64,000 nucleotides of DNA from Escherichia coli (lineage in GTDB: Bacteria > Pseudomonadota > Gammaproteobacteria > Enterobacterales > Enterobacteriaceae): assembly GCF_016026235.1 (NCBI RefSeq), contig NZ_CP065613.1, one strand, 5' to 3'. A model generated the notes under the pieces. The model was not told the origin of the DNA. It made no database searches and was given only the letters and a program-made list of their open reading frames with translations. Position numbers and translations under genes: made by a program. Of the stretch, positions 20,578-46,862 are shown in pieces. Position 1 is the first letter of the stretch, and every line of letters starts with the position of its first letter.

Positions 20578-20668
20578 TAATTGATTTTTTCTGTATGTTT
20601 TTGTTAGGTATTAATCAATTTCAGTTTTACTTTCATCTATAACAGACTTATACACGGAATGATGCGTT

Positions 20669-24700: not shown

Positions 24701-24709
24701 GGAAAACCA

Positions 24710-26279: not shown

Positions 26280-26334
26280 GGTAATGCTGCCAACTTACTG
26301 ATTTAGTGTATGATGGTGATTTTAAGGTGCTTGC

Positions 26335-27032: not shown

Positions 27033-27345
27033 GTTGGAGTCATTACCCGGCGTGCGTGCCAGGTACAGTCGTTCGGCTGGAAAAATACGGGGGCTGAGCC
27101 TGCTGGCAACACTGAGCACAATAGTGCGGTGGCTTATTGGCTATCACGCTTAAAATAAAGGGGTAGATCTGAGACAGCAGGCCAACAGAATTAAAACGCG
27201 GCGGGTAATATCGTATCTGACATTAGCGAAGAATATCTTGCGATACTCCTCGCTAATTTTAAAACGAATGGTGCTGATCACCGTTCTTAATCACTTCGCC
27301 AGAACCGACCATAATATGGTGTTGGTTTATTAGCGCTGATTCATG

Positions 27346-27358
27346 GGGATCCCTCAGT
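27346..27358. repeat. solo 13-bp match (GGGGATCCCTCAG) to the terminal repeat of the IS4-family element
   Basis: Exact reverse-complement of the IS left terminus (CTGAGGGATCCCC) with no adjacent IS body. Confidence 0.4.
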
Positions 27359-27380
27359 GCTTTTGCGGTTTTTTATATCT

Positions 27381-28205: not shown

Positions 28206-28370
28206 GCAAAATCCTTAATGCGTTTCTCTGCCGATAGTGTGGCGGAAAGTAGGGGAGAGATGCCAGTCATTTTAAAAAAGTATGATCGGTGTCTTGGTTT
28301 TTGATGGTAATTTTCATTTTTAAAATTAGTTATGGTAAAAATTTTTATCAATAATCGGGGAGATGAAAAA

Positions 28371-29927
28371 ATGATGCAAATATTTAGCGGCGCTTCGTCA
28401 GGCGCATGGTTTGAAAAAGCGCAGCGGTTCGGCAAATCGTTCATGCTGCCGATTGCGGTATTGCCCGCAGCGGGGTTGTTGTTGGGGATTGGTGGGGCTC
28501 TGTCGAATCCCAATACGTTGACGGCCTACCCATTCTTGAATGTCGACTGGCTGCAGGCAATCTTCACAATCATGACCAGCGCAGGTTCTATTGTGTTTGC
28601 CAACCTGTCGGTACTCTTTGCGGTCGGCGTCGCCGTGGGGCTGGCGAAATCGGATAAAGGCACTGCCGGGCTTGCGGCATTGCTAGCGTTTCTGGTGATG
28701 AATGCTACCATCAACGCCTTATTAACGCTAAATGGAACGTTGGCGCACAAGAACCCCGGTTCAGTTGGCCAGGGGATGACGCTTGGTATTCAGACACTGG
28801 AAACTGGTGTGTTTGGTGGGGTGGTGATTGGTCTCGTCACCTGCACGTTACATAGCCGTTTCAATAAAGTCTCACTACCTCAGTTTCTCGGTTTTTTTAG
28901 TGGTTCTCGTTTTGTACCCATTATCAGCTCCCTTGCCGCGATAGTAGTGGGTGCGGTTATGACGGTGGTGTGGCCGCATTTCCAGAAACTCATTTTTGGA
29001 CTGGGCGGCCTGGTGGATGCGACGGGCTATCTGGGGACGCTGTTGTACGGCTTCATCCTGCGTATGCTTGGTCCACTGGGTTTACACCATATCTTTTATT
29101 TGCCGTTCTGGACGACGGCGCTGGGCGGCAGTGAAATCGTCAACGGCCAGTTGGTTGAAGGTACGCAGCGGATTTTCTTTGCCCAACTTGCCGATCCGAA
29201 TACGCAGCAGTTCTACGCGGGTACCGCTCGCTTTATGTCCGGGCGCTTTATCACCATGATGTTTGGCCTGCTTGGCGCATGTCTGGCAATGTACCATACG
29301 GCAAAGCCGGAGAATAGAAAGGTTGTCGCCGGACTACTTTTGTCGGCAGCCTTGACCTCTTTCCTGACGGGAATCACTGAGCCTGTTGAGTTCTCCTTCC
29401 TGTTTGTCGCGCCCGTATTATACGTAATTCACGCCTTCTTCGATGGTCTGGCGTTTATGGTCGCCCATATTTTACATATCACTATTGGGCAAACCTTTTC
29501 GGGCGGGCTTATCGATTTCCTTCTCTTCGGCGTGTTGCAGGGGGAATCTAAAACAAACTGGATGTATGTCCCCATAGTGGGAATACCGTGGTTCTTCCTT
29601 TACTACTTCACTTTCCGCTATTTGATTAACCGCTTTGGCTGGCTGACGCCGGGTCGTGAGAACGTAACCCTGGTTGAATCCGGCCAGCCTCAGAGTGAAC
29701 GCGCAGCGGCAGTCATTGCCGGGCTGGGAGGCAAAGAGAATCTGGAAGAGGTGGACTGTTGCGCCACGCGCCTGCGCGTGACGGTTAAAGAGAGCAGTAA
29801 GGTAGATGAAGCTGCGCTGAAAGTGACCGGAGCGCGTGGCGTGATTATTCGCGGCAACGGCGTTCAGGTGATTTATGGCCCTCATGTCACCATCATTAAA
29901 AACGAAGTCGAAGAGATTTTATCGTAA
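28371..29927 (+). CDS. PTS glucose-family EIICB component
   Basis: Polytopic EIIC followed by EIIB motif CATRLR; GGGGAG Shine-Dalgarno ahead of ATG at 28371 (ORF track starts at 28332). Confidence 0.8.
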
Positions 29928-30616
29928 TGAAAACTGTACTGGATTCCCTGAAAGGTAAATTAATCGTCTCCTGTCAGGCTCTGGAAAATGAGCCTCTACA
30001 TAGTCCGTTTATTATGTCACGTATGGCGCTGGCGGCAGCACAAGGTGGTGCTGCAGGTATCCGTGCCAACAGCGTGGCGGATATTAGTGCTATCAAAGAG
30101 ATTGTCTCCCTTCCGATGATAGGGATTATCAAACGCGATTACCCTGGCAGTGAGGTGTTTATCACGGCCACTCTCCGGGAAGTGGATGAGTTGATGACCG
30201 TTGAGCCGGAAATTATTGCCCTGGATGCTACTGCGCGCCCGCGCCCTGGTGGTCAGACGCTGGAAGAACTGGTCACGCAGATCCGCGCTCGCTACCCGTC
30301 CGTACTTCTGATGGCAGATATAGCAACAGTAGAAGAGGCGGTGACAGCTGAACGTCTGGGTTTTGACTGTGTGGGCACTACGCTCTACGGCTATACCGCA
30401 GAAACTGCCAGGCATGTGCTGGCGGAAAATGACTGTGGATTCTTACGTGAGGTCCTGGCAGCGGTCAGCGTTCCGGTTGTGGCGGAAGGGAACGTCGATA
30501 CCCCGGAACGTGCCGCACGTTGCCTAACATTAGGCGCTCATACCGTGGTGGTTGGGGGGGCAATCACTCGTCCGCAGCAGATAACGACACGCTTTATCGC
30601 GGCGATCGCCTCGTAA
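29927..30616 (+). CDS. putative N-acetylmannosamine-6-phosphate 2-epimerase (NanE family)
   Basis: 229-aa TIM-barrel-like product; start overlaps the EIICB stop (TAATG). Confidence 0.75.
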
Positions 30617-30643
30617 AGCACCGATGGGGTATGATACTTTGGT

Positions 30644-30673
30644 GGGGATAAGCGATAATTATCGCTTATCCCC
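30644..30673. repeat. perfect 30-bp palindrome GGGGATAAGCGATAATTATCGCTTATCCCC
   Basis: Exact dyad symmetry directly downstream of the NanE-like gene, without a T-run. Confidence 0.6.
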
Positions 30674-31856
30674 ATATTGAGAGTGTTATGCAGTACCCGA
30701 TTAGCTAGATTTTCCAGACCCTGCAAGGTGAGGGGGACTATTGACGCGCTGGACGAACTATTCGCCACGCTGAGCTACGACAAACCGCGGGTGATTGCGC
30801 TGCACTTTAAAATTTCCGAAGGTTATACCCTGTTGATGCTGATTACCACCTTCACCAGCTGCCTGATATTGTGCAAAAACTACGGCTGGTGAAGGTTGGT
30901 TTTACCATTACTGCTGTATATACCCTGCAACTGTTATGGCTGAATGGCGAGCAGTACATCCTTCCGTGTCTTATCAACACCATTATTGGTTGTTTAATTG
31001 CTTCGGCGGTACCGTCTGGTTGTGGTCACAGTGGTATAACGGGTTATTGCGTAAGAATGCCCATGACGCTTCAGAAGCCTATCAGAAAGTGATATTGGCT
31101 CAGCAGCACTTTACAAACGGCGGTACAGTGGCTGGGAGATTATTGCCGATCCGATATGCCGCATTAATGAGAGAGTTCATCATAGGAGAACGCTTTTGCC
31201 AAATAAACCACCTGCCTGTCGTCCAGAATCGCCGCGTAGCTGGTTTTCCCAACCGTTTGCTCAGAAATGAGATCAATAGCCGCAAATCGCGGGCCTGATC
31301 GATGCTTTCAATATAGTTAGCCGCCATTTTTTGCAGCGCCAGGCCCACGTGATACAAGCGTGTATCCGGCATATAGAGCGGATAGTCGTTATCGAGAAAC
31401 TCCTGAGTCAGGCAGTGGGCGGAGCTTCTGGGAATATAGAGGTAATCTGCGAGGCGATCTGATGTATAATCTGTTTAGTAAGAGTAGCGTTTTTAACGCT
31501 ATTACGTCCATGGTGTAGCCTATATGCAGGCAAAGTTCATATCCTTGAGTTTTATGTCAGCCTCTTCCTTTAAGCATCTACTTGGTGTCTATCGTTACTT
31601 CGCACACAAGCATCATGTATATGATGTAACGAAATTAGTTAACGCCCTTATAAGAATCAAGACGTTATCGGGACGCTGTTAACCTGGCTATCCATCCCAA
31701 AACCGGTGCTGACTGGCAATAGCGCGGACAGCAAAATCGGGTGATGACACCGGGGCAGAATGAAAAATATTATCTTGCTGGCGCGTTACATAGCTGAACG
31801 GGCAAAGTCTGCTACGTGGGCAGTAACCGCAAAGTTCAGCCTTATTTATCAGTCTG

Positions 31857-32090
31857 TTGAAGCAACTGAAGTCTGTGTACCGGCGGGCAAAAACGATGCC
31901 CCTCATCGTGGATAATTACATTATTCACAAAAGCCGGGAAACGCAGCGTTGGCTGAAGGAAAATCCGAAGTTCAGGGTGATTTATCAGCAAGTTTACTCG
32001 CCATGGGTAAATCATTTTGAACGGCTATGGCAGGCGCTTCATGAAACGATAACGCGCAATCATCAGTGCCGGAGATGTGGCAGTTGCTGA
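31857..32090 (+). pseudogene. C-terminal fragment of a DDE transposase (IS630-like motif YSPWVNHFERLW)
   Basis: 77-aa ORF with no N-terminal catalytic domain; surrounding frames broken. Confidence 0.4.
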
Positions 32091-32176
32091 AAAAAGTCCA
32101 ACACTTTATGGAAACTGCCAGTCCGTTCCCCGGCGGGAGACATGGTCTGGCAAAAGTGTAGCGGTATTAGGCGCAG

Positions 32177-32470
32177 CTATTTAGCGACATATTCCTTTGT
32201 TTTATCGTCAGTTCGTAAACGTCCGATAGCGATGATGTGAAGTGCACTATTTGCAGCACGCTCCCCACCCCGATTAAGTCGGTAACGGTTCATTTTTTTA
32301 GAAGATACGGTAACCGAGTTGACACCACACAGCACCGCAAAACCTGATTCTATTCTTAGCCGTTGGGGATTATCTCCGGCAGTGATGAGCAACTGCGAAG
32401 CGCTTTCGTATCCAACAGCATTACGTTTAATCAGTTCAGGTGCCAGTTCATCGACAATTGCCGCAATCAT
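32177..32470 (-). pseudogene. C-terminal fragment of an IS110-family-like transposase
   Basis: 97-aa ORF whose pattern (GVNSVTVSSKK...RGGERAANSALHIIAIGRLR) parallels the C-terminal region of the intact IS110-family protein at 36419..37546. Confidence 0.35.
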
Positions 32471-32861
32471 GACATCAAGGTCGGCGATTTCATCATGTAA
32501 CTCGAAATAGCGTCAGGCAAGTGATTTCAATGCAATGCGATAAACGTTGGTAACATTACGATATTCACTGGCACTAGGCTTCCAGGATCCCGGAGTCCTG
32601 ATAAGTTGCATACGTGTCATATTTCTGAGTGGTTCGCGTAATTCATCCGGTGCAGAGATAATATAGGAATGGATAATCTGGAGAGCGACTCTGCAGGCTG
32701 ATATTGCGGTTTTGCGGCAAGTTTTTGGCATCCGCTTCTACGCCAAATACCTGAAGTAGGAATGGATGCGTTAGCAGCATACATCCGGATCTGCGCGGGG
32801 AATAGCCGGAAACGGCTATCCCTACCACAATAGCTAACTTTGTAATAGTGCCCTTTTAGGC

Positions 32862-33893
32862 TCATGTACTCTGACGTAATTCTATCTGGTAGTTGAATTG
32901 CACGATACGCGACTCTTCTGATTCATCATGATTATTATTCAATAGCCCAATCAGTAACTTACCCGTCTCTATCCCCATTTTTTTGTAGTCAATACGGATG
33001 GATGTCAAGGTTGGGTGTGTTTGATCGCAATTGTCTGAACCATCAAGACAAGCTACAGCGATATTTTCAGGAATTTTTAACAAACGCCGCTGGCACTCAA
33101 ACATGATACCCAGCGCAATCTCTTCGTGGCTGCAAATCACAGCATCCAGCTCTGGTTGTCGCAGTAATATCTCGTTTAATGCGTAACGCCCCAATTGCAG
33201 ACTTGCGGCATCCGGCATGGTGATAACAAGATCAGAGTTCTGGTAATGGCTCAACATTGCTTTATGCCAGCCGTTCAGTTGCTGACGTTGCAGGCGGTTG
33301 TCCATATGCGCACCGATAAATCCGATATTCTTATAACCCTGTTCCAGCAGATGTTCGGTCAGTTTATGTGATGCTTCAAAAAATGCTGTTTCGATGGTAA
33401 TTTGAGCCGGACTGAAAGGGGAACCGACAACGTTAATGGTAGGTATATTTGTTTTCTCGAGTATCTGGTGAGTTTTATCAGCCAACTGAGAACCAAAAAT
33501 AACTAACGCCGCCGGGTTGCCTTGAAGAAGCGTCATCAGAATTTCAGCTTCTTTGAGCTGATTATACTCATGACACCCAAGCAGTAGCTGGAATTCATTT
33601 TTATTAAGCACCTGCTGCAACGACTGCATAAAGCGGGAGCTGGCTTTATCTGTCAGGGAAGGAACCAGTACGGCGACTGTATCACTGTGACCAGATGCAA
33701 GGGCGCCAGCAGTTCTGTTGGGAATATAACCCAACTCTTCTACGGCCTGTTCTATCTTTTCCCTCAGCTTGTCAGATACCTGTTCCGGTGTTCTCAGCGC
33801 ACGGGAAACGGTCATGGTTCCGACACCTGCAAAGTTAGCGACCTCCTGCAGCGTCACCCGTCCGGTACCACGGCGCTTACGTGTTTTTTCCAT
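32862..33893 (-). CDS. LacI-family transcriptional regulator
   Basis: 343-aa ORF with N-terminal HTH (TLQEVANFAGVGTMTVSRAL) and sugar-binding domain; divergent from the PTS operon. Confidence 0.8.
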   Translation of the reverse strand: MEKTRKRRGTGRVTLQEVANFAGVGTMTVSRALRTPEQVSDKLREKIEQAVEELGYIPNRTAGALASGHSDTVAVLVPSLTDKASSRFMQSLQQVLNKNEFQLLLGCHEYNQLKEAEILMTLLQGNPAALVIFGSQLADKTHQILEKTNIPTINVVGSPFSPAQITIETAFFEASHKLTEHLLEQGYKNIGFIGAHMDNRLQRQQLNGWHKAMLSHYQNSDLVITMPDAASLQLGRYALNEILLRQPELDAVICSHEEIALGIMFECQRRLLKIPENIAVACLDGSDNCDQTHPTLTSIRIDYKKMGIETGKLLIGLLNNNHDESEESRIVQFNYQIELRQST

Positions 33894-34163
33894 TTCGACT
33901 CCATGGATAATTACAACCAGCTGTTTTCATTACTGTTATTTCACCATTACTCTTTCCAGTTTTTGCCCACGGTAGCAAATATCCTGTTGCATTGTATATG
34001 CAGGAACCGAATATAGCCAAAGCATGGCGGCAGAGAAATGATAGCGCTATCACAAAGATTGGTAGCGTTATCAGATAGCGCTATCAAATGCGACAATCAT
34101 CACATTAATTAATGCGTAAAATATCTACTCTCCTGTTAATTATCATCGGGAGTTATCAGTAGC

Positions 34164-34607
34164 ATGTTAAAAAATCTATTAAATACAGAGGTCGTTCAGG
34201 TCGTGGAACAGGCCAAAGACTGGCGGGAAGCCGTGGCGATTTCATGCCGGCCGTTGATTGAAAACGGTTCTATCGAACCGCGTTATGTTGATGCGATCTA
34301 TCGCTCGCACGACACTATCGGTCCGTACTATGTGGTTGGCCCTGGTATTGCGATGCCTCATGCGCGCCCGGAAGAGGGAGCTAACAAGCTGTCATTAGCA
34401 CTGACCCTGATCCCTTCAGGTGTGAATTTTGATGCCGATGAAAACGATCCAGTGAAATTACTGATTGTGCTGGCTGCAACCGACAGTACCAGCCACATTG
34501 AAGCGATTTCTCAACTCGCCAAGTTATTCGATAACGAAAAAGACATACAGGCCATTTTGATGGCCAAAACGACGCAGGACATTTTGTCTGTTATTGCGCG
34601 CTATTAA
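34164..34607 (+). CDS. PTS EIIA component (ascorbate/mannitol-type)
   Basis: 147-aa ORF with phosphorylatable His region GIAMPHAR. Confidence 0.75.
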   Translation: MLKNLLNTEVVQVVEQAKDWREAVAISCRPLIENGSIEPRYVDAIYRSHDTIGPYYVVGPGIAMPHARPEEGANKLSLALTLIPSGVNFDADENDPVKLLIVLAATDSTSHIEAISQLAKLFDNEKDIQAILMAKTTQDILSVIARY

Positions 34608-34622
34608 TCCAGAGGAACATTT

Positions 34623-34910
34623 ATGAAAATTACAGTGGTTTGCGGTAACGGCTTAGGCACCAGCCTGATGATGGAAATGAGCATTAAAAGCATTTTGAAG
34701 GATTTGTCCGTCAGCGCTGATGTTGATCACGTCGACCTGGGCTCCGCGAAAGGGACGCCGAGTGATATCTATGTCGGCACCAAAGACATTGCCGAGCAGT
34801 TAGTCGCGCAGTCTGTCGCAGGCAAAATCGTCGCACTGGAAAATATGATTGATAAGAAAGCCATGAGAGAACGTTTATCCGTGGTATTAAACGAATTAGG
34901 CGCACTGTAA
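34623..34910 (+). CDS. PTS EIIB component (ascorbate-type)
   Basis: 95-aa ORF with N-terminal Cys motif VVCGNGLGTS. Confidence 0.75.
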   Translation: MKITVVCGNGLGTSLMMEMSIKSILKDLSVSADVDHVDLGSAKGTPSDIYVGTKDIAEQLVAQSVAGKIVALENMIDKKAMRERLSVVLNELGAL

Positions 34911-34922
34911 GCTGGGGGCGAT

Positions 34923-36179
34923 ATGGATTTCTTTCGTTTTTTGATGAGCGATGTACTTTCCGAACCCGCAGTGCTGGTCGGTTTAATCGCCCTGATTGGC
35001 CTGATTGCACAGAAAAAACCGGTAACCGAATGCATTAAAGGTACCGTCAAGACCATTATGGGGTTTGTGATTTTAGGCGCAGGGGCGGGTTTAGTTGTGT
35101 CGTCACTGGGTGACTTCGCAAACATTTTCCAGCATGCCTTTGGTATTCAGGGTGTAGTGCCGAACAATGAAGCCATTGTTTCCGTAGCGCAGAAAAGCTT
35201 CGGGAAAGAAATGGCGATGATTATGTTCTTTGCGATGGTTATCAACATTATGATTGCCCGTTTCACACCGTGGAAATTTATCTTCCTGACCGGTCATCAC
35301 ACGTTGTTTATGTCGATGATGGTAGCGGTAATTCTGGCAACAGCAGGCATGACCGGCATTACGCTTATAGCCGTTGGCTCTTTGGTTGTTGGCGTGGCAA
35401 TGGTCTTTTTCCCGGCTATTGCGCATCCGTACATGAAGAAAGTGACCGGTTCTGATGACGTTGCCATCGGCCACTTCTCAACATTATCTTATGTATTGGC
35501 CGGTTTCATCGGCAGCAAGTTTGGTAATAAAGAGCACTCGACTGAAGACATGAATGTGCCGAAAAGTCTGCTGTTCTTGCGCGACACGCCGGTTGCTATC
35601 TCTTTTACCATGAGCATAATTTTCCTGGTGACGTGCCTGTTTGCGGGTGCAGATGCGGTGAAAGAGCTTAGCGGTGGTAAAAACTGGTTCATGTTCTCTA
35701 TCATGCAATCCATTACCTTCGCAGCTGGCGTGTACATCATTCTGCAGGGTGTGCGCATGGTGATTGCGGAGATTGTCCCGGCATTCAAAGGTATTTCAGA
35801 CAAGCTGGTTCCGAATGCCAGACCTGCTCTCGATTGCCCGGTCGTCTTCCCTTACGCACCTAACGCTGTACTGGTTGGTTTCCTGAGTAGCTTTGCTGCA
35901 GGTTTAATCGGTATGTTCACGTTGTATCTGCTGAACATGATCGTGATTATTCCTGGTGTGGTGCCGCACTTCTTCGTAGGTGCAGCTGCAGGGGTATTCG
36001 GTAATGCAACGGGTGGACGTCGTGGTGCGATTTTGGGTGCCTTCGCTCAAGGCTTGCTTATTACCTTCCTGCCAGTATTCTTATTGCCGGTGCTGGGTGA
36101 TATTGGTTTTGCTAACACCACCTTCAGTGATGCTGACTTTGGCGCACTGGGTATTTTGTTAGGGATTATCGTTCGCTAA
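34923..36179 (+). CDS. PTS EIIC component (ascorbate-type, SgaT/UlaA-like)
   Basis: 418-aa polytopic membrane protein following EIIA and EIIB. Confidence 0.75.
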   Translation: MDFFRFLMSDVLSEPAVLVGLIALIGLIAQKKPVTECIKGTVKTIMGFVILGAGAGLVVSSLGDFANIFQHAFGIQGVVPNNEAIVSVAQKSFGKEMAMIMFFAMVINIMIARFTPWKFIFLTGHHTLFMSMMVAVILATAGMTGITLIAVGSLVVGVAMVFFPAIAHPYMKKVTGSDDVAIGHFSTLSYVLAGFIGSKFGNKEHSTEDMNVPKSLLFLRDTPVAISFTMSIIFLVTCLFAGADAVKELSGGKNWFMFSIMQSITFAAGVYIILQGVRMVIAEIVPAFKGISDKLVPNARPALDCPVVFPYAPNAVLVGFLSSFAAGLIGMFTLYLLNMIVIIPGVVPHFFVGAAAGVFGNATGGRRGAILGAFAQGLLITFLPVFLLPVLGDIGFANTTFSDADFGALGILLGIIVR

Positions 36180-36418
36180 TATTTTGATGACATTAATATC
36201 CTCCAGGATTTCAGGAACGTGGAGGATATTAATTCCTCTTATTTTCTCCATTTTTCTTTCTTCCAGTCAGGACTGCATCCGATTAATCGTAAGGCAGTAT
36301 GACTTTCTGTGAGACAGATGCTGGCCAACGTGGGATATTTAACGCGGGTTAACATCGTTGTCAGAGCCGCATGGGTGAGCTGTTGCTACACCCCGGTATT
36401 TCCACCACGGAGGCCAGC

Positions 36419-37546
36419 ATGAACAACAATAACACATTGTACGTCGGGTTAGATGTTCACAAAGAATCGATTACTGTCGCTTATGCTATCAATTCAGAAC
36501 CTGTTGAACTGATGGGTAAAATTGGCACATCACCTACTGATATTCAGAATCTTTGTAAACGTCTCAGGTCAAAGTCATCGCAGGTCAGTATCGTTTATGA
36601 AGCGGGGCCCTGTGGTTATGGACTTTATCGTCGGCTGGTGAAATCCGGTTTTGACTGCATGGTCTGCGCCCCCTCACTTATCCCGAAAAAACCGGGGGAG
36701 CGGGTTAAAACCGATCGCCGTGATGCCATCAGACTTGTGCGTTCACTGCGTGCAGGAGATCTTTCTGCTGTCTACGTACCCGGCATTGAAGATGAGGCAT
36801 TCCGGGATTTGGCCCGGGCATGGGCATCTGCCCGCGATGATTTACGGCATGCAAGGCAACGTCTGAAATCGTTTCTTCTGGTTCATGGGGTCCATTATGT
36901 CGGGCGAGCAGATTGGGGCCCTGCACACCGACGCTGGCTCAGCAAATACTCATTCGAAAGTCCCTGGCGACAATTAGCTTTTGACGAACACCGTCGTACA
37001 ATAGAAGACCGGCAGGCACAATGTGAACGGCTGGAATCCGCCCTGAAGGAGGCCGTTACCGAATGGAGGCTGTATCCGGTAGTAGAGGCGCTGCAAGCCA
37101 TGCGAGGGATTCAGTTTATTACTGCGGTTGGATTAATTTCTGAACTGGGTGATCTGACCCGTTTTGAACATCCACGACAACTGATGTCATGGTTTGGTAT
37201 CACGCCATCAGAATATTCATCGGGTGGAAGCAGACATCAGGGCAGCATTACCAAAGCCGGAAACAGCTATGCCAGAAAGCTATTGGTCGAGGCAGCGTGG
37301 AGTTACCGTCATCCGGCACGCATCAGTCCGGCAATACAAAAAAGGCAGGAAAATTTACCCCGCCCCGTCATTGACAGAGCATGGGATGCTCAACTCAGGC
37401 TTTGTAAGAGGTATCGAAAACTTCAGGCCAAAGGAAAGAATGTCAATATTACAATTGTTGCTGTTGCACGTGAGCTGGCGGGTTTTATCTGGGATATGGG
37501 CCGAATAGCAATATCTGTCGCACAACAACCACAATGTCACAAATAA
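36419..37546 (+). CDS. IS110-family transposase/recombinase (DEDD N-terminal domain)
   Basis: Start at MNNNNTLYVGLDVHKESI after GGAGG; C-terminal motif GITPSEYSSGGSRHQGSITKAGNSYARKLL typical of the IS110 family. Confidence 0.8.
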   Translation: MNNNNTLYVGLDVHKESITVAYAINSEPVELMGKIGTSPTDIQNLCKRLRSKSSQVSIVYEAGPCGYGLYRRLVKSGFDCMVCAPSLIPKKPGERVKTDRRDAIRLVRSLRAGDLSAVYVPGIEDEAFRDLARAWASARDDLRHARQRLKSFLLVHGVHYVGRADWGPAHRRWLSKYSFESPWRQLAFDEHRRTIEDRQAQCERLESALKEAVTEWRLYPVVEALQAMRGIQFITAVGLISELGDLTRFEHPRQLMSWFGITPSEYSSGGSRHQGSITKAGNSYARKLLVEAAWSYRHPARISPAIQKRQENLPRPVIDRAWDAQLRLCKRYRKLQAKGKNVNITIVAVARELAGFIWDMGRIAISVAQQPQCHK

Positions 37547-38138
37547 AAAATGAGAATAACCAGTTCCCTGAAGGCGACGTAGCCCGGTACAAGAGTAACC
37601 CACGTTAGCGCTTGGCGACGGCGGAACAAAGCTGATTCGCGACGTAAGAAAGTGGCAGGCTCATATGACGGACCTCTGTAATGCGGTATCCAACCCGCGA
37701 ATATCAGCGTGATTCACCGTCGGATTTACTGCTACGTCGCCCTCAGGGAATTAAACCTAAAAAGAAAATCGTCAAAATTAGAGATTCCGGTTTGACACGG
37801 AAAGTCATATCAGCGCTGACGGGTGACCCTAAGCCCTGATAATCATAGCTTAAGGTGAGGATTTATGAGGGATTAATTAGGAAAAGTAATAATTAATTTG
37901 TTGTCAGTCGGCGATGTTTGTTAGGCCAATATTTCAAAAATAATCCAGCTTGTCGTCAATAATTGCGATAAAGAGATAAATTAAAGTTAAATAATTAAAT
38001 CATTAAAAAATTACGCCATTAAAATGCGAGGCGTCTTCCGGATTAGAATCGATAAAACAGAATGGGTTAAAGAGAGCGATATAATAGCGGCGGGTGCTTG
38101 AGGCTGTCTGTCTCAGGCATTAGCTGAACGGCAGATAG

Positions 38139-38193
38139 AGAAAAGCCCCGAGTGATATTTTACCATCAACCCGAGGCCCCCTATATGCTGAAC
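38139..38193 (-). ncRNA. sokC: putative Sok-type antisense RNA of the hok/mok locus (position inferred, not seen)
   Basis: Inferred from the canonical hok/sok layout, in which the antitoxin RNA is antisense to the mok start region; no promoter or terminator verified. Confidence 0.3.
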
Positions 38194-38394
38194 ACATGTA
38201 GAGTGCCTCTTACTGACCGTAAGGTCAAGGAGAAGAGAGCAATGAAGCAGCATAAGGCGATGATTGTCGCCCTGATCGTCATCTGTATCACCGCCGTAGT
38301 GGCGGCGCTGGTAACGAGAAAAGACCTCTGTGAGGTTCACATCCGAACTGGCCAGACGGAGGTTGCTGTTTTCACGGCTTACGAATCCGAGTAA
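38185..38394 (+). CDS. mokC: Mok-type translational coupling frame overlapping hok
   Basis: 69-codon frame starting MLNTCRVPL that ends at the same stop as hok. Confidence 0.6.
   Translation: MLNTCRVPLTDRKVKEKRAMKQHKAMIVALIVICITAVVAALVTRKDLCEVHIRTGQTEVAVFTAYESE
38242..38394 (+). CDS. hokC: Hok/Gef-family type I toxin (50 aa)
   Basis: MKQHKAMIVALIVICITAVVAALVTRKDLCEVHIRTGQTEVAVFTAYESE, a single-TM Hok family peptide. Confidence 0.85.
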   Translation: MKQHKAMIVALIVICITAVVAALVTRKDLCEVHIRTGQTEVAVFTAYESE

Positions 38395-38417
38395 GAGCAA
38401 CGGCGGGGAGTGATCCC

Positions 38418-39712
38418 CTGAGGGATCCCCAGAAAATTTAGTAAACCATTATCATATTGGTATACCGTTGCTGTAGAACTTTCAGCCCTGCGTCAAGTGA
38501 CAGTGTGTTTAGTATGAGTGGAGAATGTCGAATCACATTCTCCGCCAGTTTTAATAACGAGATGACTCGCCTGTGCTTCACTGTATTTGCCTGATATTTA
38601 TGATGTATCCCTTTGTTTTCCAGGCTGAAACCGCTTAACCACATAATGATACTGGCTAATGTTGCGATCAGACTCAATACCGTGACCCGCCCGGATGAAT
38701 GACTGGCACCAAACCGTAGTCCAAATCCCCAGCGAGGATTTTTTTCATCCCTGAAATTTTGCTCAATTTGCATTCTACGGCTGTATAATTTCATTACCTG
38801 TTTTGGCGAGAACTCAGTACTGTTTGTGAAAATAAACCATGGTGATTTCCCGGCAGTACGAGCTTTAGCCGTCACCGATGGTCTGGTTGCTCTTTCCTTC
38901 GAGCGTTTAAATCTACGACCTTTAGGCTTACTTTTATAAAGATAAAAATGCCCTTCATGTTGTGCATTTTTATCTCGACCCAGCAGGCCTTCACCTAAAT
39001 AAATTGCTGTCGTTGATGCTTTTGTGCCTGAGTCCGACACCTTTTCCCAGCCATTACCAACATTGTAATAATGATTGCCCAGTACCCGGCAAATATAGGT
39101 CCAGCCACGGGAGCGGAGCTGTTGGAACCATCGCCCCTGAAAACCGGCATCTGTAATAACAATGACATCAGTCCCGGGGGAAAAGCACTCAGCAAGCGAT
39201 TCCAGAAAACGCTCATGTACATCTGCATTCGCTGTCTGTGATGATGGAACGACACAACTCATCAACGGTAAAGAACGCCCGTCACATGCCAGGCTTGCCC
39301 GCAAAAGCTGAAAACGAGAGGCATGATAAGCACTCCAGTCAATGAGTATCACAACACGAGACATTCCCCGCGTAATCTTTTGGGTAATTCGCTGAAAAAT
39401 GGTGGAAACCTCATTTTGCAAATGTCGATTCCCCAACAGTCGATCCACCCGCTTTATTTTGTTTTTAACTGATGCCGTACCGGTTAAATGACGCCCGATA
39501 CTGGTAAGTGTGAGGGAAGCGCCATTTATTACAGCATTAGTTGCGTCAATCAGTGATTTTTGACGGTAAAGATGCAAAGGGGCCAGTATATTGTTAAGGA
39601 AATTTTGGCATAATGAACGTGCAGGCATAGTGGTGATCTCCTTGAAATTGTTAGCACAATCAATTAGATCACATCTCACTATGCCTGTCTTGTTTTCTGG
39701 GGATTCCTCAGG
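38418..39712 (-). mobile_element. IS4-family insertion sequence (IS10-like), copy 3, flanked by 9-bp direct repeat AGTGATCCC
   Basis: Same termini as copies 1 and 2; duplicated 9-mer at 38409..38417 and 39713..39721; target lies in GGGGAGTGATCCCC. Confidence 0.85.
38438..39628 (-). CDS. IS4-family (IS10-like) DDE transposase
   Basis: Identical protein to copies 1 and 2. Confidence 0.8.
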   Translation of the reverse strand: MPARSLCQNFLNNILAPLHLYRQKSLIDATNAVINGASLTLTSIGRHLTGTASVKNKIKRVDRLLGNRHLQNEVSTIFQRITQKITRGMSRVVILIDWSAYHASRFQLLRASLACDGRSLPLMSCVVPSSQTANADVHERFLESLAECFSPGTDVIVITDAGFQGRWFQQLRSRGWTYICRVLGNHYYNVGNGWEKVSDSGTKASTTAIYLGEGLLGRDKNAQHEGHFYLYKSKPKGRRFKRSKERATRPSVTAKARTAGKSPWFIFTNSTEFSPKQVMKLYSRRMQIEQNFRDEKNPRWGFGLRFGASHSSGRVTVLSLIATLASIIMWLSGFSLENKGIHHKYQANTVKHRRVISLLKLAENVIRHSPLILNTLSLDAGLKVLQQRYTNMIMVY

Positions 39713-39801
39713 AGTGATCCCCGCCACTTTACAGGTGCTCGCATATCTTCAACGCACCCTATTTTTACCCAGGCCTGCCCACGGGCAGGCTTTTGGGGAG
39801 G

Positions 39802-40932
39802 TTAGCGGGTCAGGTCGTCAAAAAACTTCTTCACACCATCAAAGAAGCTCTTTGAGCGCGGGCTGTTGTGCTCGCCGGTTGGGCCACCGAAGCTTTCTTG
39901 CAGCTCTTGCAGCAGCTGTTTCTGCTTCTCGTTCAGGCCTACCGGTGTTTCGACGACAACGCGGCACAGCAAATCACCCTGTGCGCCACCGCGGACAGAC
40001 TTGACGCCTTTACCGCGCATACGGAATAGCTTACCGGTCTGGGTTTCGCCAGGCACTTTCAGTTTGACGCGACCATCAAGGGTCGGTACTTCGATTTCGC
40101 CACCCAGCGCCGCCATAGCGAAGTTGATCGGGACTTCGCAATACAGGTTGTTGCCTTCACGCTCGAAAATCGGGTGCTGTTTAACCTGAACCTGAACGTA
40201 CAGATCGCCTGCCGGTGCGCCATGCTCGCCCGCTTCACCTTCGCCCGCAAGACGGATGCGGTCTCCAGTGTCCACCCCTGCCGGGATTTTAACGGACAGC
40301 GTTTTGCTGCGCTCAACACGACCATGACCATGACATTTGTTGCACGGATCTTTGATCAGCGTACCGCGGCCCTGACAGTGTGGACAGGTCTGCTGCACGG
40401 CAAAGAAACCCTGGCGCATCTGCACCTGACCAGAACCATGACAGGTCGGACAGGTCTGCGGCTGTGTACCTGGTTTTGCACCGCTACCGTGGCAAACGTC
40501 ACACTCTTCCAGAGTCGGAATGCGGATCTCTTTGGTCACGCCACGTACAGCTTCTTCGAGGGTGAGCTCCATGTTATAGCGTAAATCAGCACCGCGCGCC
40601 GCACGTTGACGACCACGTCCGCCGCCAAAAATATCGCCGAAAACGTCACCAAAAATATCGCTGAAGTCTGCGCCGCCGCCAAAACCGCCGCCGCCCATGC
40701 CACCTTGCTCAAACGCAGCATGACCATACTGATCGTATGCCGCACGTTTTTGCGAGTCGGTCAGAACTTCATAAGCTTCCTTGATCTCTTTAAATTTCGC
40801 CTCGGCCTCTTTGTCACCCTGGTTACGGTCTGGGTGGTATTTCATGGCCAGGCGTTTGTAGGCCTTTTTGATTTCACGCTCTTCCGCTGTTTTGGAAACG
40901 CCTAAAATCTCGTAATAATCTTGCTTAGCCAT
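39802..40932 (-). CDS. dnaJ: chaperone DnaJ (Hsp40)
   Basis: J-domain with HPD, G/F-rich region and four CxxCxGxG zinc motifs; start at [11 protein letters not shown]. Confidence 0.97.
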
Positions 40933-41020
40933 CTTTTTTAAATTGCCCCTAGATGAATGCACGGGCGGAGAGGAAATTCCCCTTCGCCCGTGTCAGTATA
41001 ATTACCCGTTTATAGGGCGA

Positions 41021-42937
41021 TTATTTTTTGTCTTTGACTTCTTCAAATTCAGCGTCGACAACATCGTCATCTTTCGCGTTGTTTGCAGAAGCATCAGCAC
41101 CGGCAGTCTGCTGCTGGGCATGTTGCTGCTGGGCGATTTCCATCAGTTTCTGGGAAACCTGTGCCAGTTCCTGCATTTTCGCTTCGATAGCGGCTTTGTC
41201 TTCACCTTTCAGAGCAGTTTCCAGTGCAGTCAGCGCAGACTCGATAGCAGTTTTGTCGTCAGCCGGCAGTTTGTCGCCTGCTTCTTCAACCTGCTTACGG
41301 GTGCTGTGCAGCAGATGGTCGCCCTGGTTGCGAGTCTGTACCAGCTCTTCAAACTTACGGTCAGCTTCGGCGTTAGCTTCTGCGTCGCGTACCATTTTCT
41401 GGATTTCATCTTCGTTCAGACCAGAAGAAGCCTTGATGGTGATCTTCTGCTCTTTACCGCTGTTTTTATCTTTCGCGGAAACGTGCAGGATACCGTCAGC
41501 ATCGATATCGAAGGTAACTTCGATCTGCGGCATGCCGCGCGGTGCCGGGTTGATACCATCCAGGTTGAACTGACCCAGAGATTTGTTATCAGCCGCACGT
41601 TTACGTTCACCCTGCAGCACGTGGATGGTTACCGCAGACTGGTTGTCTTCAGCGGTAGAGAACACCTGGCTGTGCTTGGTCGGGATAGTGGTGTTTTTCG
41701 CGATCAGCGTCGTCATCACACCGCCCATGGTTTCGATACCCAGAGACAGCGGGGTAACGTCCAGCAGCAGTACGTCTTTTACGTCACCAGTCAGAACACC
41801 ACCCTGAACAGCAGCACCGATTGCTACAGCTTCGTCCGGGTTAACATCTTTACGCGGCTCTTTACCAAAGAACTCAGCAACTTTCTTCTGAACCATTGGC
41901 ATACGAGTCTGACCACCAACGAGGATAACGTCGTCGATATCAGATACGGACAGGCCAGCGTCCTGCAGTGCAACTTTCAGCGGCTCAATGGAACGGTTTA
42001 CCAGATCTTCAACCAGGCTTTCCAGTTTCGCACGAGTCACTTTGATGTTCATGTGTTTCGGACCGGTCGCGTCTGCAGTGATGTACGGCAGGTTAACGTC
42101 GGTCTGCTGAGCGGAAGACAGTTCGATTTTCGCTTTTTCTGCCGCTTCTTTCAGGCGCTGCATTGCCAGCGGATCGTTGCGCAGGTCAATGCCCTGATCT
42201 TTCTTGAATTCTTCAACCAGATAGTTGATCAGACGGCTGTCGAAGTCTTCACCACCCAGGTGGGTATCACCGTTGGTTGCCAGAACTTCGAAGGTTTTTT
42301 CGCCGTCAACTTCGTCGATTTCGATAATAGAAATATCGAAAGTACCACCACCCAGGTCATAAACCGCGATAGTACGGTTGCCAGTACCTTTGTCCAGACC
42401 GTAAGCCAGCGCAGCTGCGGTCGGTTCGTTGATGATACGTTTTACTTCGAGACCAGCGATACGGCCTGCGTCTTTGGTTGCCTGACGCTGAGCATCGTTA
42501 AAGTATGCCGGTACGGTGATAACAGCTTCAGTTACCGGTTCACCCAGGTAATCTTCAGCGGTTTTCTTCATTTTTTTCAGCACTTCAGCAGAGATCTGCG
42601 GCGGTGCCATTTTCTGGCCTTTAACTTCGACCCATGCGTCGCCGTTATCAGCAGCAATAATTTTGAACGGCATGATGGAAACATCACGCTGTACTTCTTC
42701 GTCCTGGAAGCGGCGGCCAATCAGGCGTTTAATCGCAAACAGGGTGTTTTGCGGGTTCGTCACTGCCTGACGTTTAGCCGGCTGACCAACCAGAGTTTCA
42801 CCATCCTGGGTATAGGCAATAATAGAAGGCGTGGTGCGATCGCCTTCGGCGTTCTCCAGCACGCGAGGAGTGGTGCCATCCATAATCGCTACACAAGAGT
42901 TGGTAGTACCCAGGTCGATACCAATTATTTTACCCAT
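41021..42937 (-). CDS. dnaK: chaperone DnaK (Hsp70)
   Basis: 638-aa Hsp70 with signatures IDLGTTNS and DLGGGTFD. Confidence 0.98.
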
Positions 42938-43054
42938 CTAAACGTCTCCACTATATATTCGGTCATCATGTGGTTGTGAGTCTGTAATAGGGGCGAAACG
43001 TCTGGTTTCAACTGCCCAATTTCATTTTTTTGCAGACTCACTCACTGCGGTTGA

Positions 43055-43100
43055 CTACTAAATGGGGTCGTAACCCACGTCATCAAGGGGGAGATGCAAA
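43055..43100 (-). promoter_or_regulatory. putative sigma32 heat-shock promoter of dnaK
   Basis: Minus-strand reading CCCCCTTGATGACGTGG...CCCCATTTAGT resembles the sigma32 -35 (CTTGAA) and -10 (CCCCATNT) consensus. Confidence 0.5.
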
Positions 43101-43313
43101 AATTTTTTGTGCTTTTGCTCAGAAATTTCGCGATATGGCAGGACAAGACGTAAAATTGACAGCAATTTTATTCATATAAAGAATGAATCGCAGCCAAGGT
43201 ATTCATCAAAAAATTGTAATAAAAAGAAAAGATTACGTGCCTGAATCTTCTCTTTATCAGCAGTAAACTAGTGGGTATTCATCCCCCTACCTCTTCCCAC
43301 TAAGAGAATCCTT

Positions 43314-43718
43314 ATGAAATCCGTTTTTACGATTTCCGCCAGCCTGGCGATTAGCCTGATGCTGTGCTGCACGGCGCAGGCAAACGACCATAAACTCCTC
43401 GGCGTCATTGCAATGCCGCGTAACGAAACCAACGATCTGGCGCTGAAACTTCCTGTTTGTCGCATTGTGAAACGCATACAACTCTCTGCCGACCATGGCG
43501 ATTTACAGTTAAGCGGTGCATCGGTTTATTTCAAAGCCGCCCGTAGCGCCAGTCAGAGCCTGAATATTCCTTCAGAAATAAAAGAAGGGCAAACCACTGA
43601 CTGGATCAACATTAACAGTGATAACGACAATAAACGCTGCGTCTCAAAAATCACCTTTTCCGGTCATACGGTGAACTCATCGGATATGGCCACGCTGAAA
43701 ATTATCGGCGACGACTAA
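43314..43718 (+). CDS. yaaI: DUF2541 periplasmic protein YaaI
   Basis: 134-aa ORF with signal peptide; conserved position next to dnaK. Confidence 0.85.
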
Positions 43719-43743
43719 CGCCAGAATATAGAAGCCACAAAAA

Positions 43744-44457
43744 ATGAATGTTAATTACCTGAATGATTCAGATCTGGATTTTCTCCAGCATTGTAGTGAG
43801 GAACAGTTAGCAAATTTCGCCCAGCTGCTCACCCATAATGAAAAAGGCAAAACTAGCCTCTCCAGCGTACTGATGCGCAACGAACTGTTTAAATCGATGG
43901 AAGGACATCCCGAGCAACATCGCCGCAACTGGCAGCTGATTGCTGGAGAATTACAGCATTTTGGTGGCGATAGTATCGCCAACAAACTGCGCGGACACGG
44001 TAAATTGTATCGGGCCATTTTGCTCGATGTTTCAAAACGATTGAAGCTGAAAGCCGACAAAGAGATGTCTACGTTTGAAATTGAGCAACAGTTACTGGAA
44101 CAATTTCTGCGTAATACCTGGAAGAAAATGGACGAGGAACATAAGCAGGAGTTTCTGCACGCGGTCGATGCCAGGGTGAATGAGCTGGAAGAGCTGCTGC
44201 CGCTGCTGATGAAAGACAAATTATTGGCAAAAGGCGTGTCGCATTTGCTTTCCAGCCAATTGACCCGCATTTTACGCACCCACGCAGCAATGAGCGTGCT
44301 TGGGCATGGTTTGCTGCGCGGCGCGGGTCTGGGAGGCCCTGTGGGCGCAGCATTAAATGGGGTTAAAGCGGTCAGCGGCAGCGCCTATCGCGTGACGATT
44401 CCAGCCGTACTGCAAATCGCCTGCCTGCGCCGGATGGTTAGCGCCACTCAGGTCTGA
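43744..44457 (+). CDS. yaaW: UPF0174 protein YaaW
   Basis: 237-aa ORF in conserved synteny. Confidence 0.85.
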   Translation: MNVNYLNDSDLDFLQHCSEEQLANFAQLLTHNEKGKTSLSSVLMRNELFKSMEGHPEQHRRNWQLIAGELQHFGGDSIANKLRGHGKLYRAILLDVSKRLKLKADKEMSTFEIEQQLLEQFLRNTWKKMDEEHKQEFLHAVDARVNELEELLPLLMKDKLLAKGVSHLLSSQLTRILRTHAAMSVLGHGLLRGAGLGGPVGAALNGVKAVSGSAYRVTIPAVLQIACLRRMVSATQV

Positions 44458-44605
44458 TACCGGAAACCGGGGAAAATTTTCATTTTCCCCTCAAAAGATC
44501 GTAGACACTGCCCCACTGGCTGATTATTATGCCGCGCCCTGAAAACACTACAGTTATTCAGGGAAATTATTTCACCATTCATTCGATGATGATTTTTGAG
44601 GAATT

Positions 44606-45172
44606 ATGGGCAACACTAAGTTGGCTAATCCGGCACCGCTGGGCCTGATGGGCTTCGGCATGACCACCATTCTGCTTAACCTGCACAACGTGGGTTATTT
44701 CGCTCTGGACGGTATTATTCTTGCCATGGGCATTTTCTACGGCGGCATCGCGCAAATTTTTGCCGGTCTGCTGGAGTACAAAAAAGGCAACACTTTCGGT
44801 TTAACCGCATTCACCTCTTACGGTTCTTTCTGGCTGACGCTGGTTGCGATTCTGCTGATGCCGAAACTGGGTCTGACCGATGCGCCAAATGCACAGTTCC
44901 TTGGTGTCTACCTGGGTCTGTGGGGCGTATTTACGCTGTTTATGTTCTTCGGCACTCTGAAAGGCGCACGCGTCCTGCAATTCGTTTTCTTTAGCCTGAC
45001 CGTGCTGTTTGCCCTGCTGGCGATCGGTAACATTGCCGGTAATGCCGCGATCATCCACTTTGCCGGCTGGATTGGTCTGATCTGCGGTGCCAGCGCAATC
45101 TATCTGGCGATGGGTGAAGTGCTGAACGAGCAGTTTGGTCGCACCGTTCTGCCGATTGGTGAATCCCACTAA
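44606..45172 (+). CDS. satP: succinate-acetate/proton symporter SatP (YaaH)
   Basis: 188-aa six-TM product, GPR1/FUN34/YaaH family. Confidence 0.9.
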   Translation: MGNTKLANPAPLGLMGFGMTTILLNLHNVGYFALDGIILAMGIFYGGIAQIFAGLLEYKKGNTFGLTAFTSYGSFWLTLVAILLMPKLGLTDAPNAQFLGVYLGLWGVFTLFMFFGTLKGARVLQFVFFSLTVLFALLAIGNIAGNAAIIHFAGWIGLICGASAIYLAMGEVLNEQFGRTVLPIGESH

Positions 45173-45182
45173 TTGTTTTGAG

Positions 45183-45208
45183 ATCCCCCCGCTCGGGGGG
45201 ATTTTTTT
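45183..45208 (+). terminator. rho-independent terminator after satP
   Basis: Hairpin ATCCCCCCGCTCGGGGGGAT followed by TTTTTTT. Confidence 0.6.
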
Positions 45209-45797
45209 ATTCGCTAACGTCGCGTCTTGCACTCTTCGGTCTGAATGCAGCAACCACTTCTGGTGCCGTTTCAACGTATGGCCCTTCCAGCAACTGAATG
45301 CAGTACGGTACGCTGGCAAAAATACCGTGTACCACAACGTTACCCTCAGCGTCCTTCACACCTTCCAGCGTCTCTTTAATAGACTTCGGCTGACCGGGTA
45401 AGTTAAGGATCAGCGCCTGTTTGCGAATCACACCCACCTGACGCGAAAGGATCGCAGTTGGTACAAAATGCAGGCTGATCTGACGCATCTGTTCACCAAA
45501 GCCAGGCATCTCGCGGTCCGCTACTGCCAGCGTCGCATCGGGCGTTACGTCACGACGCGCCGGGCCAGTTCCGCCCGTGGTGAGCACCAGATGGCAACTC
45601 ATTTCATCCACCAGCTCACACAACGTTTGTTCGATGATCGCCTGCTCATCGGGGATTAAGCGGGTTTCCAGTTCAAACGGCGTGGTTAGCGCCGATGTCA
45701 GCCATTCTTCCAGCGCAGGGATGCCTTTATCCTGATAAACGCCGCTGGATGCGCGATCAGAGATGGAAACTAAGCCAATACGTAAAGTATTCATCAA
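45207..45797 (-). CDS. mog: molybdopterin adenylyltransferase Mog
   Basis: 196-aa MoaB/MogA-fold product (TTGGTG motif). Confidence 0.92.
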   Translation of the reverse strand: MMNTLRIGLVSISDRASSGVYQDKGIPALEEWLTSALTTPFELETRLIPDEQAIIEQTLCELVDEMSCHLVLTTGGTGPARRDVTPDATLAVADREMPGFGEQMRQISLHFVPTAILSRQVGVIRKQALILNLPGQPKSIKETLEGVKDAEGNVVVHGIFASVPYCIQLLEGPYVETAPEVVAAFRPKSARRDVSE

Positions 45798-45908
45798 GAT
45801 TTTTCCGTTTAAACAGTCTCGTTAAACAGAATGATACACTGCGAAGGGAGTGACAGACAGGCTTCAGAAGAGGTAGCGTGACCGACTTCCCGGTCACGCT
45901 AAGAATGA

Positions 45909-46862
45909 TTACAGCAGATCGCCGATCATTTTTTCCAGTTTTTCCTGGTCAATAGCAAACTTACGGATACCTTCCGCCAGTTTATCTACTGCCATTGGAT
46001 CCTGGTTGTGCTGCCACAGGAACTCGGACTCAGTGATACGCGCCGGACGCGCTTTCACTTCGCCGGTGTAAGACAGTTTACGTTCGATAGCCCCTTCGCT
46101 CTCCGCCAGCTCTTTCAGCAGTGCCGGTGCGATGGTCAGACGGTCGCAGCCTGCCAGTTCCAGAATTTCGCCGATGTTACGGAAGCTTGCGCCCATAACC
46201 ACGGTTTCATAACCGTGCTCTTTGTAGTACTGGTAGATTTCAGATACAGAAACCACGCCCGGATCTTCTGCCGGAGCGTACTCTTTCTTATCGGTATTCG
46301 CTTTGTACCAGTCAAGAATACGGCCAACAAACGGCGAGATCAGGAACACGCCCGCTTCCGCACAAGCACGAGCCTGAGCGAAGGAGAACAGCAGGGTCAG
46401 GTTACAGTTGATGCCTTCTTTTTCCAGCTGTTCTGCAGCACGGATACCCTGCCAGGTAGAAGCCAGTTTGATCAGAATACGATCGTTGCTAATACCTGCA
46501 TCGTTGTAAAGTTTGATCAGGCGTTTTGCTTTCGCAATTGACGCTTCGGTGTCATAGGAAAGACGCGCATCAACTTCAGTTGAGATACGGCCCGGAACCA
46601 GTTTCAGGATTTCCAGACCAATATTTACTGCCAGTTTGTCGGTCGCGTCCACGATCTGCTGCGCGCGATCGTTGCTCTGCTGTTTCGCCCAGGCGACAGC
46701 ATCATCAATCAACTTACGATATTCCGGAATCTGCGCTGCGTTAAGAATGAGAGAAGGGTTGGTTGTGGCATCCTGCGGTTGATACAGCTTCATTGCCGCG
46801 ATGTCCCCAGTGTCGGCCACTACGGTGGTGTACTGACGAAGGGAGGTCAATTTGTCCGTCAT
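45909..46862 (-). CDS. talB: transaldolase B
   Basis: Start at [13 protein letters not shown] giving 317 aa. Confidence 0.95.

Follow-up and report, generated by a model that had tools for sequence, protein, structure and literature searches.

A leuX-island/hokC junction in Escherichia coli as a probable product of inversion between two ISSso6 copies

The joint between leuX-island DNA and the hokC region in the 64,000-bp stretch of Escherichia coli DNA analyzed in this study (contig NZ_CP065613.1 of assembly GCF_016026235.1; hereafter, the window) is best read, at a probability of approximately 85%, as one recombinant junction of a ~125-128-kb inversion produced by homologous recombination between inverted copies of the insertion sequence ISSso6. 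The single nonancestral joint in the window was located at 36293/36294, at the left end of an ISSso6 copy. A first-pass annotation of this DNA had proposed a large inversion or other rearrangement, possibly through the mobile element next to it; a large inversion through this element was supported by relatives that provide the uninverted order and by a second, inverted ISSso6.

The gene order of the window changes orientation once. The segment from rraB to leuX and the leuX island (1-36293) have the K-12 orientation, and valS, holC, pepA, lptFG, yjgR, and the idn genes lie 5' of leuX, oriented as in K-12. The tRNA-Leu(CAA) gene leuX, identified by ARAGORN (19073-19157, plus strand), is the boundary at which the K-12-oriented core gives way to the island, of which ~17 kb is still joined to leuX (19158-36293, plus strand). 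According to the ORF list, this part contains an integrase (19309-20577), a disrupted DRT system, IS copies, nanE/PTS genes, a LacI regulator (32862-33893, minus strand), and the PTS IIA/IIB/IIC genes (34164-36179), which are the last of the island segment. From 37814 to 64000, the nhaA/hokC spacer, hokC, dnaJ, dnaK, thr, arcA, cre, rob, and trpR are reversed relative to K-12. The opposed orientation of the rraB-leuX and hokC-trpR blocks, as claimed in the first-pass annotation, was thus borne out by the gene positions and by comparison with K-12. A 4-kb GC-skew profile did not make the orientation switch visible, being too noisy at this scale.

The reversed segment opens with a type I toxin locus, mokC/hokC (38185-38394, plus strand), within which hokC occupies 38242-38394 (plus strand); both were assigned from the RefSeq annotation of the FDAARGOS_943 sequence, which is identical here, from K-12 mapping, and from the Pfam HOK_GEF family. 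The sokC antisense RNA (38135-38193, minus strand) was placed through K-12 annotation mapped by alignment, and the Rfam sok family (RF01794) matched 38092-38244 with 119.5 bits against a gathering score of 59. Rfam, Pfam, and K-12 mapping together identified a Hok ORF, an overlapping mok, and a sok/hok leader structure, the features of a hok/sok type I locus. Between hokC and dnaJ lies ISEc60 (IS4 family, IS186-like; 38415-39714, minus strand), whose K-12 equivalent at the same place is IS186A; in GCA_901482675.2, the transposase gene at this place runs in the opposite orientation. The first core gene of the inverted segment is dnaJ (39802-40932, minus strand), followed by dnaK (41021-42937, minus strand), and the inverted core runs on to trpR at the window end.

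In K-12, nhaA directly follows hokC, as had been stated at first pass, with no IS between them. In the window, the absence of an nhaA-like coding sequence before hok was confirmed and extends to the whole stretch: neither nhaA nor nhaR was found, and bases 1-8000 of the FDAARGOS_943 locus, which hold both genes, matched the window through an IS1 copy only. That IS1 copy lies inside the leuX island (26276-27047), and FDAARGOS_943 has a 99.6% identical IS1 near nhaR. The leuX-hokC distance in K-12, initially given as ~150 kb, is presumably ~162 kb by the K-12 leuX coordinates, and it is ~144 kb in FDAARGOS_943 as calculated from alignments.

The breakpoint had initially been placed inside 37547-38184, but no breakpoint was found there. 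This interval comprises the 267-bp 3' noncoding region of ISSso6 and 371 bp of native hokC upstream DNA; the exchange falls within ISSso6 (36294-37813), and the new joint lies at its left end. The native nhaA-hokC intergenic DNA (37814-38184, plus strand), which starts with the right half-target CGCTGACGGG, is not rearranged: the alignment with K-12 positions 16,729-17,334, reversed, was colinear and 97.9% identical, and FDAARGOS_943 was also colinear. Across 36289-46400, the window and FDAARGOS_943 were colinear, with eight substitutions and no gaps. In the island, the left half-target GTAAG (36289-36293, plus strand) forms the outer tip of an inverted repeat belonging to a degenerate IS66-family element. 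The flanks of the window copy are therefore hybrid, with a left half-site from the leuX-island IS66 remnant and a right half-site from nhaA/hokC.

The element itself is a member of the IS110 family with an IS1111-type layout (36294-37813, 1520 bp, plus strand), 99.9% identical to annotated ISSso6 copies, and is the only ISSso6 copy in the window. We searched 5,426 complete E. coli genomes with 36180-38400, and the ISSso6 copy spanned 36289 to ~37815-37825; its boundaries were set against the empty sites in K-12 and FDAARGOS_943, the ends being ambiguous by the shared dinucleotide AG. The empty nhaA-hokC site of K-12 reads ...GACGGCTGTAAG/CGCTCACGAGTGACCC, and the empty island site of FDAARGOS_943 reads ...GATTAATCGTAAG/CGCTCCGAGAAG (slashes in sequences mark the insertion point). 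The inverted repeats are 14 bp long, TATGACTTTC(C/T)GTG, and begin 4 nt inside each end; the left subterminal repeat, read from the sequence as TATGACTTTCTGTG (36298-36311, plus strand), pairs with CACGGAAAGTCATA at 37796-37809. The IS110-family gene that had been noted before the hok interval is present at 36419-37546 (plus strand) and encodes a 375-aa DEDD transposase (Pfam PF01548 and PF02371) that matches the NCBIfam model NF033542, "IS110 family RNA-guided transposase," with 273.9 bits (cut-off, 140). Noncoding DNA amounts to 267 bp after the transposase stop versus 125 bp before its start. Comparison of empty and filled sites in K-12, FDAARGOS_943, and 55989 revealed no target duplication at ISSso6 insertions, a sequence-specific target, and a fixed orientation. 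The DEDD domains, subterminal repeats, downstream noncoding region, and lack of target duplication identify ISSso6 as an IS110/IS1111-type element.

The target is short and recurrent. GTAAG stands directly to the left of ISSso6 in 14 of 14 insertion sites (12 loci), with CG(C/T) to the right in most. Beside one ISSso6 copy, an IS66-family element has the inverted repeats GTAAGCGTAAACTGACC... and GTAAGCGTCAACGGAGC..., both tips of which read GTAAGCG, and several ISSso6 copies sit exactly 5 bp inside IS66-family tips of both the IRL and IRR types. ISSso6 also occurs at look-alike sites, such as the nhaA-hokC spacer and a paralogous hok-like site. At the empty island site, an 84-aa ORF represents a truncated IS66 TnpA, as judged from 62% identity to an intact TnpA over 82 aa and from matches to NCBIfam models of IS66 TnpA. 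The constant left flank, together with an uninterrupted island site, GTAAG/CGCTCC, that fits the consensus GTAAG/CG, indicates that 36293/36294 is not a chance join, and by these sequence features the left junction of the window is a genuine, correctly oriented ISSso6 insertion junction at the IS66 remnant. The window also contains six unoccupied bare GTAAGCG heptamers (1265, 7356, and 62438 on the plus strand; 4739, 6859, and 33874 on the minus strand); recognition by ISSso6 must therefore extend beyond the heptamer or be inefficient.

The noncoding region downstream of the transposase gene (37547-37813, plus strand) may encode the guide for this specificity and was listed as a candidate seekRNA/bridge-RNA gene on the basis of its fold and target matches. 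Its fold energy is -88 kcal/mol (z = -4.7 versus shuffles). AGCGCTT at 37607-37613 is complementary to the target top strand AAGCGCT, and CGTAAG at 37643-37648, ~30 nt 3' of it, is identical to the target top strand. IS1111-family seekRNAs carry two overlapping target matches in a fixed order (PMC11187229), and a post hoc test found paired matches in the published order in 0.6% of shuffles. An Rfam scan of 36000-38700 returned sok only, and no family matched the ISSso6 noncoding region. These findings support, short of proof, a candidate guide RNA of ISSso6 encoded in 37547-37813.

The uninverted arrangement is preserved in close relatives. The closest complete genome, FDAARGOS_943, is ~99.9-100% identical to both halves of the window, and the two halves lie there on opposite strands ~125 kb apart, the right half at 2,929,171-2,954,141 (plus strand) and the left half at 3,054,254-3,078,716 (minus strand). 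The island segment (19158-36293) is 99.96% identical to FDAARGOS_943 positions 3,054,251-3,062,000 (minus strand), and many other E. coli carry the island DNA at 100% identity as far as 36293. In FDAARGOS_943, nhaR-nhaA lies to the left of the same ISSso6/hokC joint, with ISSso6 157 bp upstream of nhaA. Its island site is empty: deoR, rbsK, fucP, the epimerase gene, and the IS66 remnant run straight into PTS IIC. The order nhaA-ISSso6-hokC was also observed in CFSAN029787 and is kept in GCA_901482675.2, and the same IS-mokC match was found in RMDEC364 and VL46; K-12 has nhaA-hokC without the IS. The linkage of PTS IIC, IS66 remnant, and epimerase is the rule in many E. coli. The first-pass annotation had considered that the window adjacency might be the common arrangement in related genomes; the PTS/ISSso6 joint was carried by 0 of the 5,426 complete E. 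coli genomes. An exact-protein look-up did not find the FDAARGOS-specific rbsK allele in the inverted clone.

Both ends of the inverted segment were observed in a sister assembly. An exact look-up of the transposase with the rare variant I365 identified contig JARKNJ010000001.1 (3.45 Mb, GCA_031665325.1), which has PTS-ISSso6(+)-hokC at 2,408,963-2,410,482 in a context matching that of the window (PTS-ISSso6-hokC-ISEc60-dnaJ) and differs from the window by one SNP in 21,128 bp at this locus; the same look-up returned three further similar places on contigs >1 Mb. On the same contig, a second ISSso6 in the opposite orientation (2,538,304-2,539,823, minus strand) adjoins, through a ~161-bp 3' IS remnant, the half of the island that the window lacks: CGCTCCGAG (CGCTCCGAGAAG...), followed by the IS66 remnant, the epimerase gene, fucP, rbsK, and deoR. 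The segment between the two inverted copies measures 127.7 kb, and the arrangement is characteristic of inversion between inverted repeats. The same IS, in opposite orientations, therefore bounds both ends of the segment in GCA_031665325.1, and the window shows one end. In GCA_900449985.1 (a 4.56-Mb contig), the reciprocal joint is simple, nhaA...GTAAG/ISSso6/remnant/CGCTCCGAG. The location of nhaA and of the reciprocal junction, which had been named at first pass as a check, was thus supplied by this assembly as nhaA-ISSso6-island half, and these sister assemblies suggest that the genome of the window has a corresponding reciprocal junction. An inversion involving a single IS with an IS-free reciprocal joint was rejected because the sister assemblies carry the IS at the reciprocal joint. 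An ORF that runs from the right end of the IS across the joint into the island was also found in several draft assemblies, including that of the enteroinvasive E. coli (EIEC) O143:H26 strain 4608-58, which places the lineage among enteroinvasive E. coli.

From the observed IS boundaries, target, hybrid flanks, ancestral linkages, and second inverted IS copy, we infer RecA-type recombination and the following order of events. The ancestor shared with FDAARGOS_943 would already have carried ISSso6 in the nhaA-hokC spacer at GTAAG/CGCT, 157 bp upstream of nhaA. Once the lineage of the window had diverged from FDAARGOS_943, another ISSso6 would have entered the same short target, GTAAG/CGCTCC, in the leuX island, at the tip of a degenerate IS66 element between PTS IIC and epimerase-fucP-rbsK-deoR; because the insertion orientation is fixed, the new island copy would have been inverted relative to the nhaA/hokC copy. 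Recombination between the two copies would then have flipped hokC, dnaKJ, thr, arcA, and trpR through to deoR, yielding PTS-ISSso6-hokC, as in the window, and nhaA-ISSso6-island right half. Judging from K-12 coordinates, the inversion should lie within one replichore, with both the origin and the terminus outside it.

In at least one member of the clone, a further exchange, with a third ISSso6 located beside sigA at another IS66 tip, would have moved nhaA. In GCA_031665325.1, the second ISSso6 and the island half adjoin the sigA flank ...ATGGGTAAG rather than nhaA, and nhaA/ISSso6, ~1.49 Mb away, continues into CGTAAACTGACC..., which comes from within an IS66 element. The ATGGGTAAG and CGTAAACTGACC flanks are contiguous in E. 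coli 55989, and the three ISSso6 sites have therefore swapped right flanks in two steps. By this comparison of flanks, nhaA appears to have been moved again by a second IS-IS exchange in GCA_031665325.1, and GCA_900449985.1 appears to preserve the intermediate stage of the two-step exchange.

The nucleotide markers within ISSso6 bear on how the exchange occurred. In an SNP table of 12 copies, the window copy alone has T at 36308, the 11 others having C; as part of the left inverted repeat, this T disrupts one of the 14 pairs and might reduce the mobility of this copy. The I365 variant corresponds to A at 37513, which is common to the window copy and the ubiC-sopA copy of the same clone only; the ubiC-sopA copy of FDAARGOS_943 has G. 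At the positions equivalent to 36308 and 37513, the copies linked to nhaA and to sigA carry C and G, respectively. If A at 37513 predated the inversion, the crossover fell within the final 300 bp of the IS, a location that is compatible with homologous recombination and to which a uniform crossover model assigns a prior of ~20%. With 37513 as the one informative site, the SNPs constrain the crossover point weakly.

These markers are also where an unlikely alternative to homologous recombination draws part of its support, namely that the RNA-guided DEDD recombinase of ISSso6 performed a site-specific exchange at the right-end/target boundaries. IS110-family recombinases are programmable to invert DNA. 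All three shuffled sites (nhaA/hokC, leuX island, and sigA island) are bona fide ISSso6 targets, and the exchanges look like swaps of the right flank, in which each IS keeps its left flank and internal markers: T15 and A1220 stay with the island flank, C15 and G1220 stay with nhaA, and if A1220 is older than the event, the crossover must have fallen 3' of position 1220. Elements of the IS1111 family read both flanking target halves (PMC11187229), which also counts in favor of such an exchange. Nevertheless, the known reaction joins the left end with the right end to form a circle, and a left-end by right-end reaction between inverted copies predicts tandem IS copies at one junction and an empty nhaA-island joint at the other, whereas the observed joints carry the IS on both sides. 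Furthermore, a single informative SNP provides at most ~5:1 support, and inverted repeats of 1.5 kb are classic RecA substrates. A recombinase origin, if true, would constitute a natural chromosomal inversion driven by a seekRNA/bridge-RNA recombinase.

A still less probable explanation is an assembly artefact, in which the true genome is uninverted and the segment lying between two real, inverted 1.5-kb copies of ISSso6 was flipped during assembly. A flip at an inverted repeat is self-consistent at both ends and, by sequence alone, indistinguishable from a real inversion, and ISSso6 copies are numerous (14 places on the FDAARGOS_943 chromosome). However, the arrangement recurs on the 3.45-Mb contig and at the three similar places on contigs >1 Mb, and assembling contigs of such length from an IS-rich genome implies reads spanning 1.5 kb. 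Moreover, the separate assembly GCA_900449985.1 holds the reciprocal joint, and the three shuffled sites form an internally consistent pattern across the clone. A break in the unique DNA before hokC (37814-38184), through illegitimate recombination or a deletion that removed nhaA with the IS as a bystander, has nothing in its favor except the absence of nhaA from the window, was rejected because this DNA is colinear with K-12 (37814-38417) and FDAARGOS_943 and the sole discontinuity lies exactly at the IS left end, at the target motif, and has a negligible probability.

The reciprocal-side junctions exhibited an additional feature that inversion by homologous recombination must accommodate. 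Every such junction examined in long contigs carries a ~161-bp extra IS 3' remnant between the full IS and the island flank, and the inversion model therefore needs one additional event; the 1602-bp contig of strain 4608-58 is uninformative about the remnant, whose sequence is the same as that of the IS end. A 106-bp ISSso6 3' remnant was found at another copy (L011). The remnants lie at L022 8163-8325, L048 5436-5598, L041 435-601, and L011 ~1819-1931; the ~161-bp remnant starts after the internal sequence ...GTAAGAAAG, and the 106-bp remnant starts after the internal sequence TATCAG/CG. These positions suggest that tandem 3' remnants result from aberrant excision at internal pseudo-ends followed by reinsertion (at GTAAG/TG in the case of the ~161-bp remnant), or from nested insertion followed by collapse.

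The rearrangement resembles systems that have already been described. IS-mediated chromosomal inversions in IS-rich E. coli and Shigella-type genomes are a general phenomenon (PMC7373316), and the inversion inferred here is a new instance of this well-known kind of event. Like the IS inversions of Shigella and EIEC, it has two inverted copies of one IS as its breakpoints, mismatched flanks, an uninverted close relative, and a host from an IS-laden enteroinvasive-type lineage. Unlike those inversions, which occur through the abundant IS1, IS600, and IS2, it involves ISSso6, a low-copy, target-specific IS110/IS1111-type element, and because there are no target duplications to compare, the evidence here comes from half-target sequences. 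Among IS1111-type elements, IS4321 and IS5075 target the inverted repeats of the Tn21 family, and ISEc11 and ISKpn4 use a seekRNA (PMC11187229). ISSso6 shares with IS1111-family elements the DEDD transposase, the subterminal repeats, the noncoding region downstream of tnp, the lack of target duplication, and the fixed orientation. Similar to IS4321 and IS5075, it targets the terminal inverted repeat of another transposable element; in contrast to them, its target is GTAAG/CG at IS66-family tips and look-alike sites. As in ISEc11 and ISKpn4, two overlapping target matches are present, with the top-strand match 5' of the bottom-strand match. The hokC/mokC/sokC locus is the same as that in the K-12 arrangement dnaJ-IS186A-hokC-sokC-nhaA, with an IS186-type element between dnaJ and hokC; unlike in K-12, ISSso6 lies beyond hokC, at the position 157 bp upstream of the nhaA start in relatives, followed by leuX-island DNA in place of nhaA.

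We found no description of this rearrangement in the literature on ISSso6 or FDAARGOS_943. Since IS-mediated inversions in Shigella- and EIEC-like genomes are well known, the case opens no new biological question. The only less ordinary aspects are the homing of ISSso6 on IS66 tips and a low probability that the exchanges were the work of the ISSso6 recombinase. The inversion by homologous recombination would be a traceable case in which a target-specific IS reshaped a pathogen chromosome: an insertion into the tip of a dead transposon created an inverted repeat, and the ensuing ~125-kb flip carried dnaKJ, the thr operon, arcA, and nearby genes and parted nhaA from its usual neighbor. The joint is usable as a lineage marker for the enteroinvasive-type clone and serves as a warning for reference-based assembly and synteny analyses.

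Several further observations concern the surrounding elements. The low-GC part of the leuX island holds a degraded defence-associated reverse transcriptase (RT) system (PADLOC RT_UG5-nitrilase and RTasTM; 20669-25534). Its RT is split into two ORFs, 20669-21217 covering profile positions 1-150 and 21358-23409 covering positions 231-913 of 958; an ISEc60 copy (23403-24700) cuts off the 3' end of the RT, and the membrane partner (24845-25534) is intact. The window contains three ISEc60 copies (2339-3636, 23403-24700, and 38415-39714), which are 99.8-100% identical and all in the same orientation, and are potential substrates for large deletions. In GCA_001907545.1, an ISSso6 copy (L041 107-218) has 19 substitutions in ~105 bp (IS positions 1191-1295), a cluster that spans the end of tnp and the start of the noncoding region and represents either a mosaic variant or an assembly artefact of this short-read draft. 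The lone difference between the window and GCA_031665325.1 in the 21 kb compared is at 44121, in an msyB-like ORF (43744-44457) that is intact in the window, with TGG (Trp), and truncated in GCA_031665325.1, with TGA (stop).
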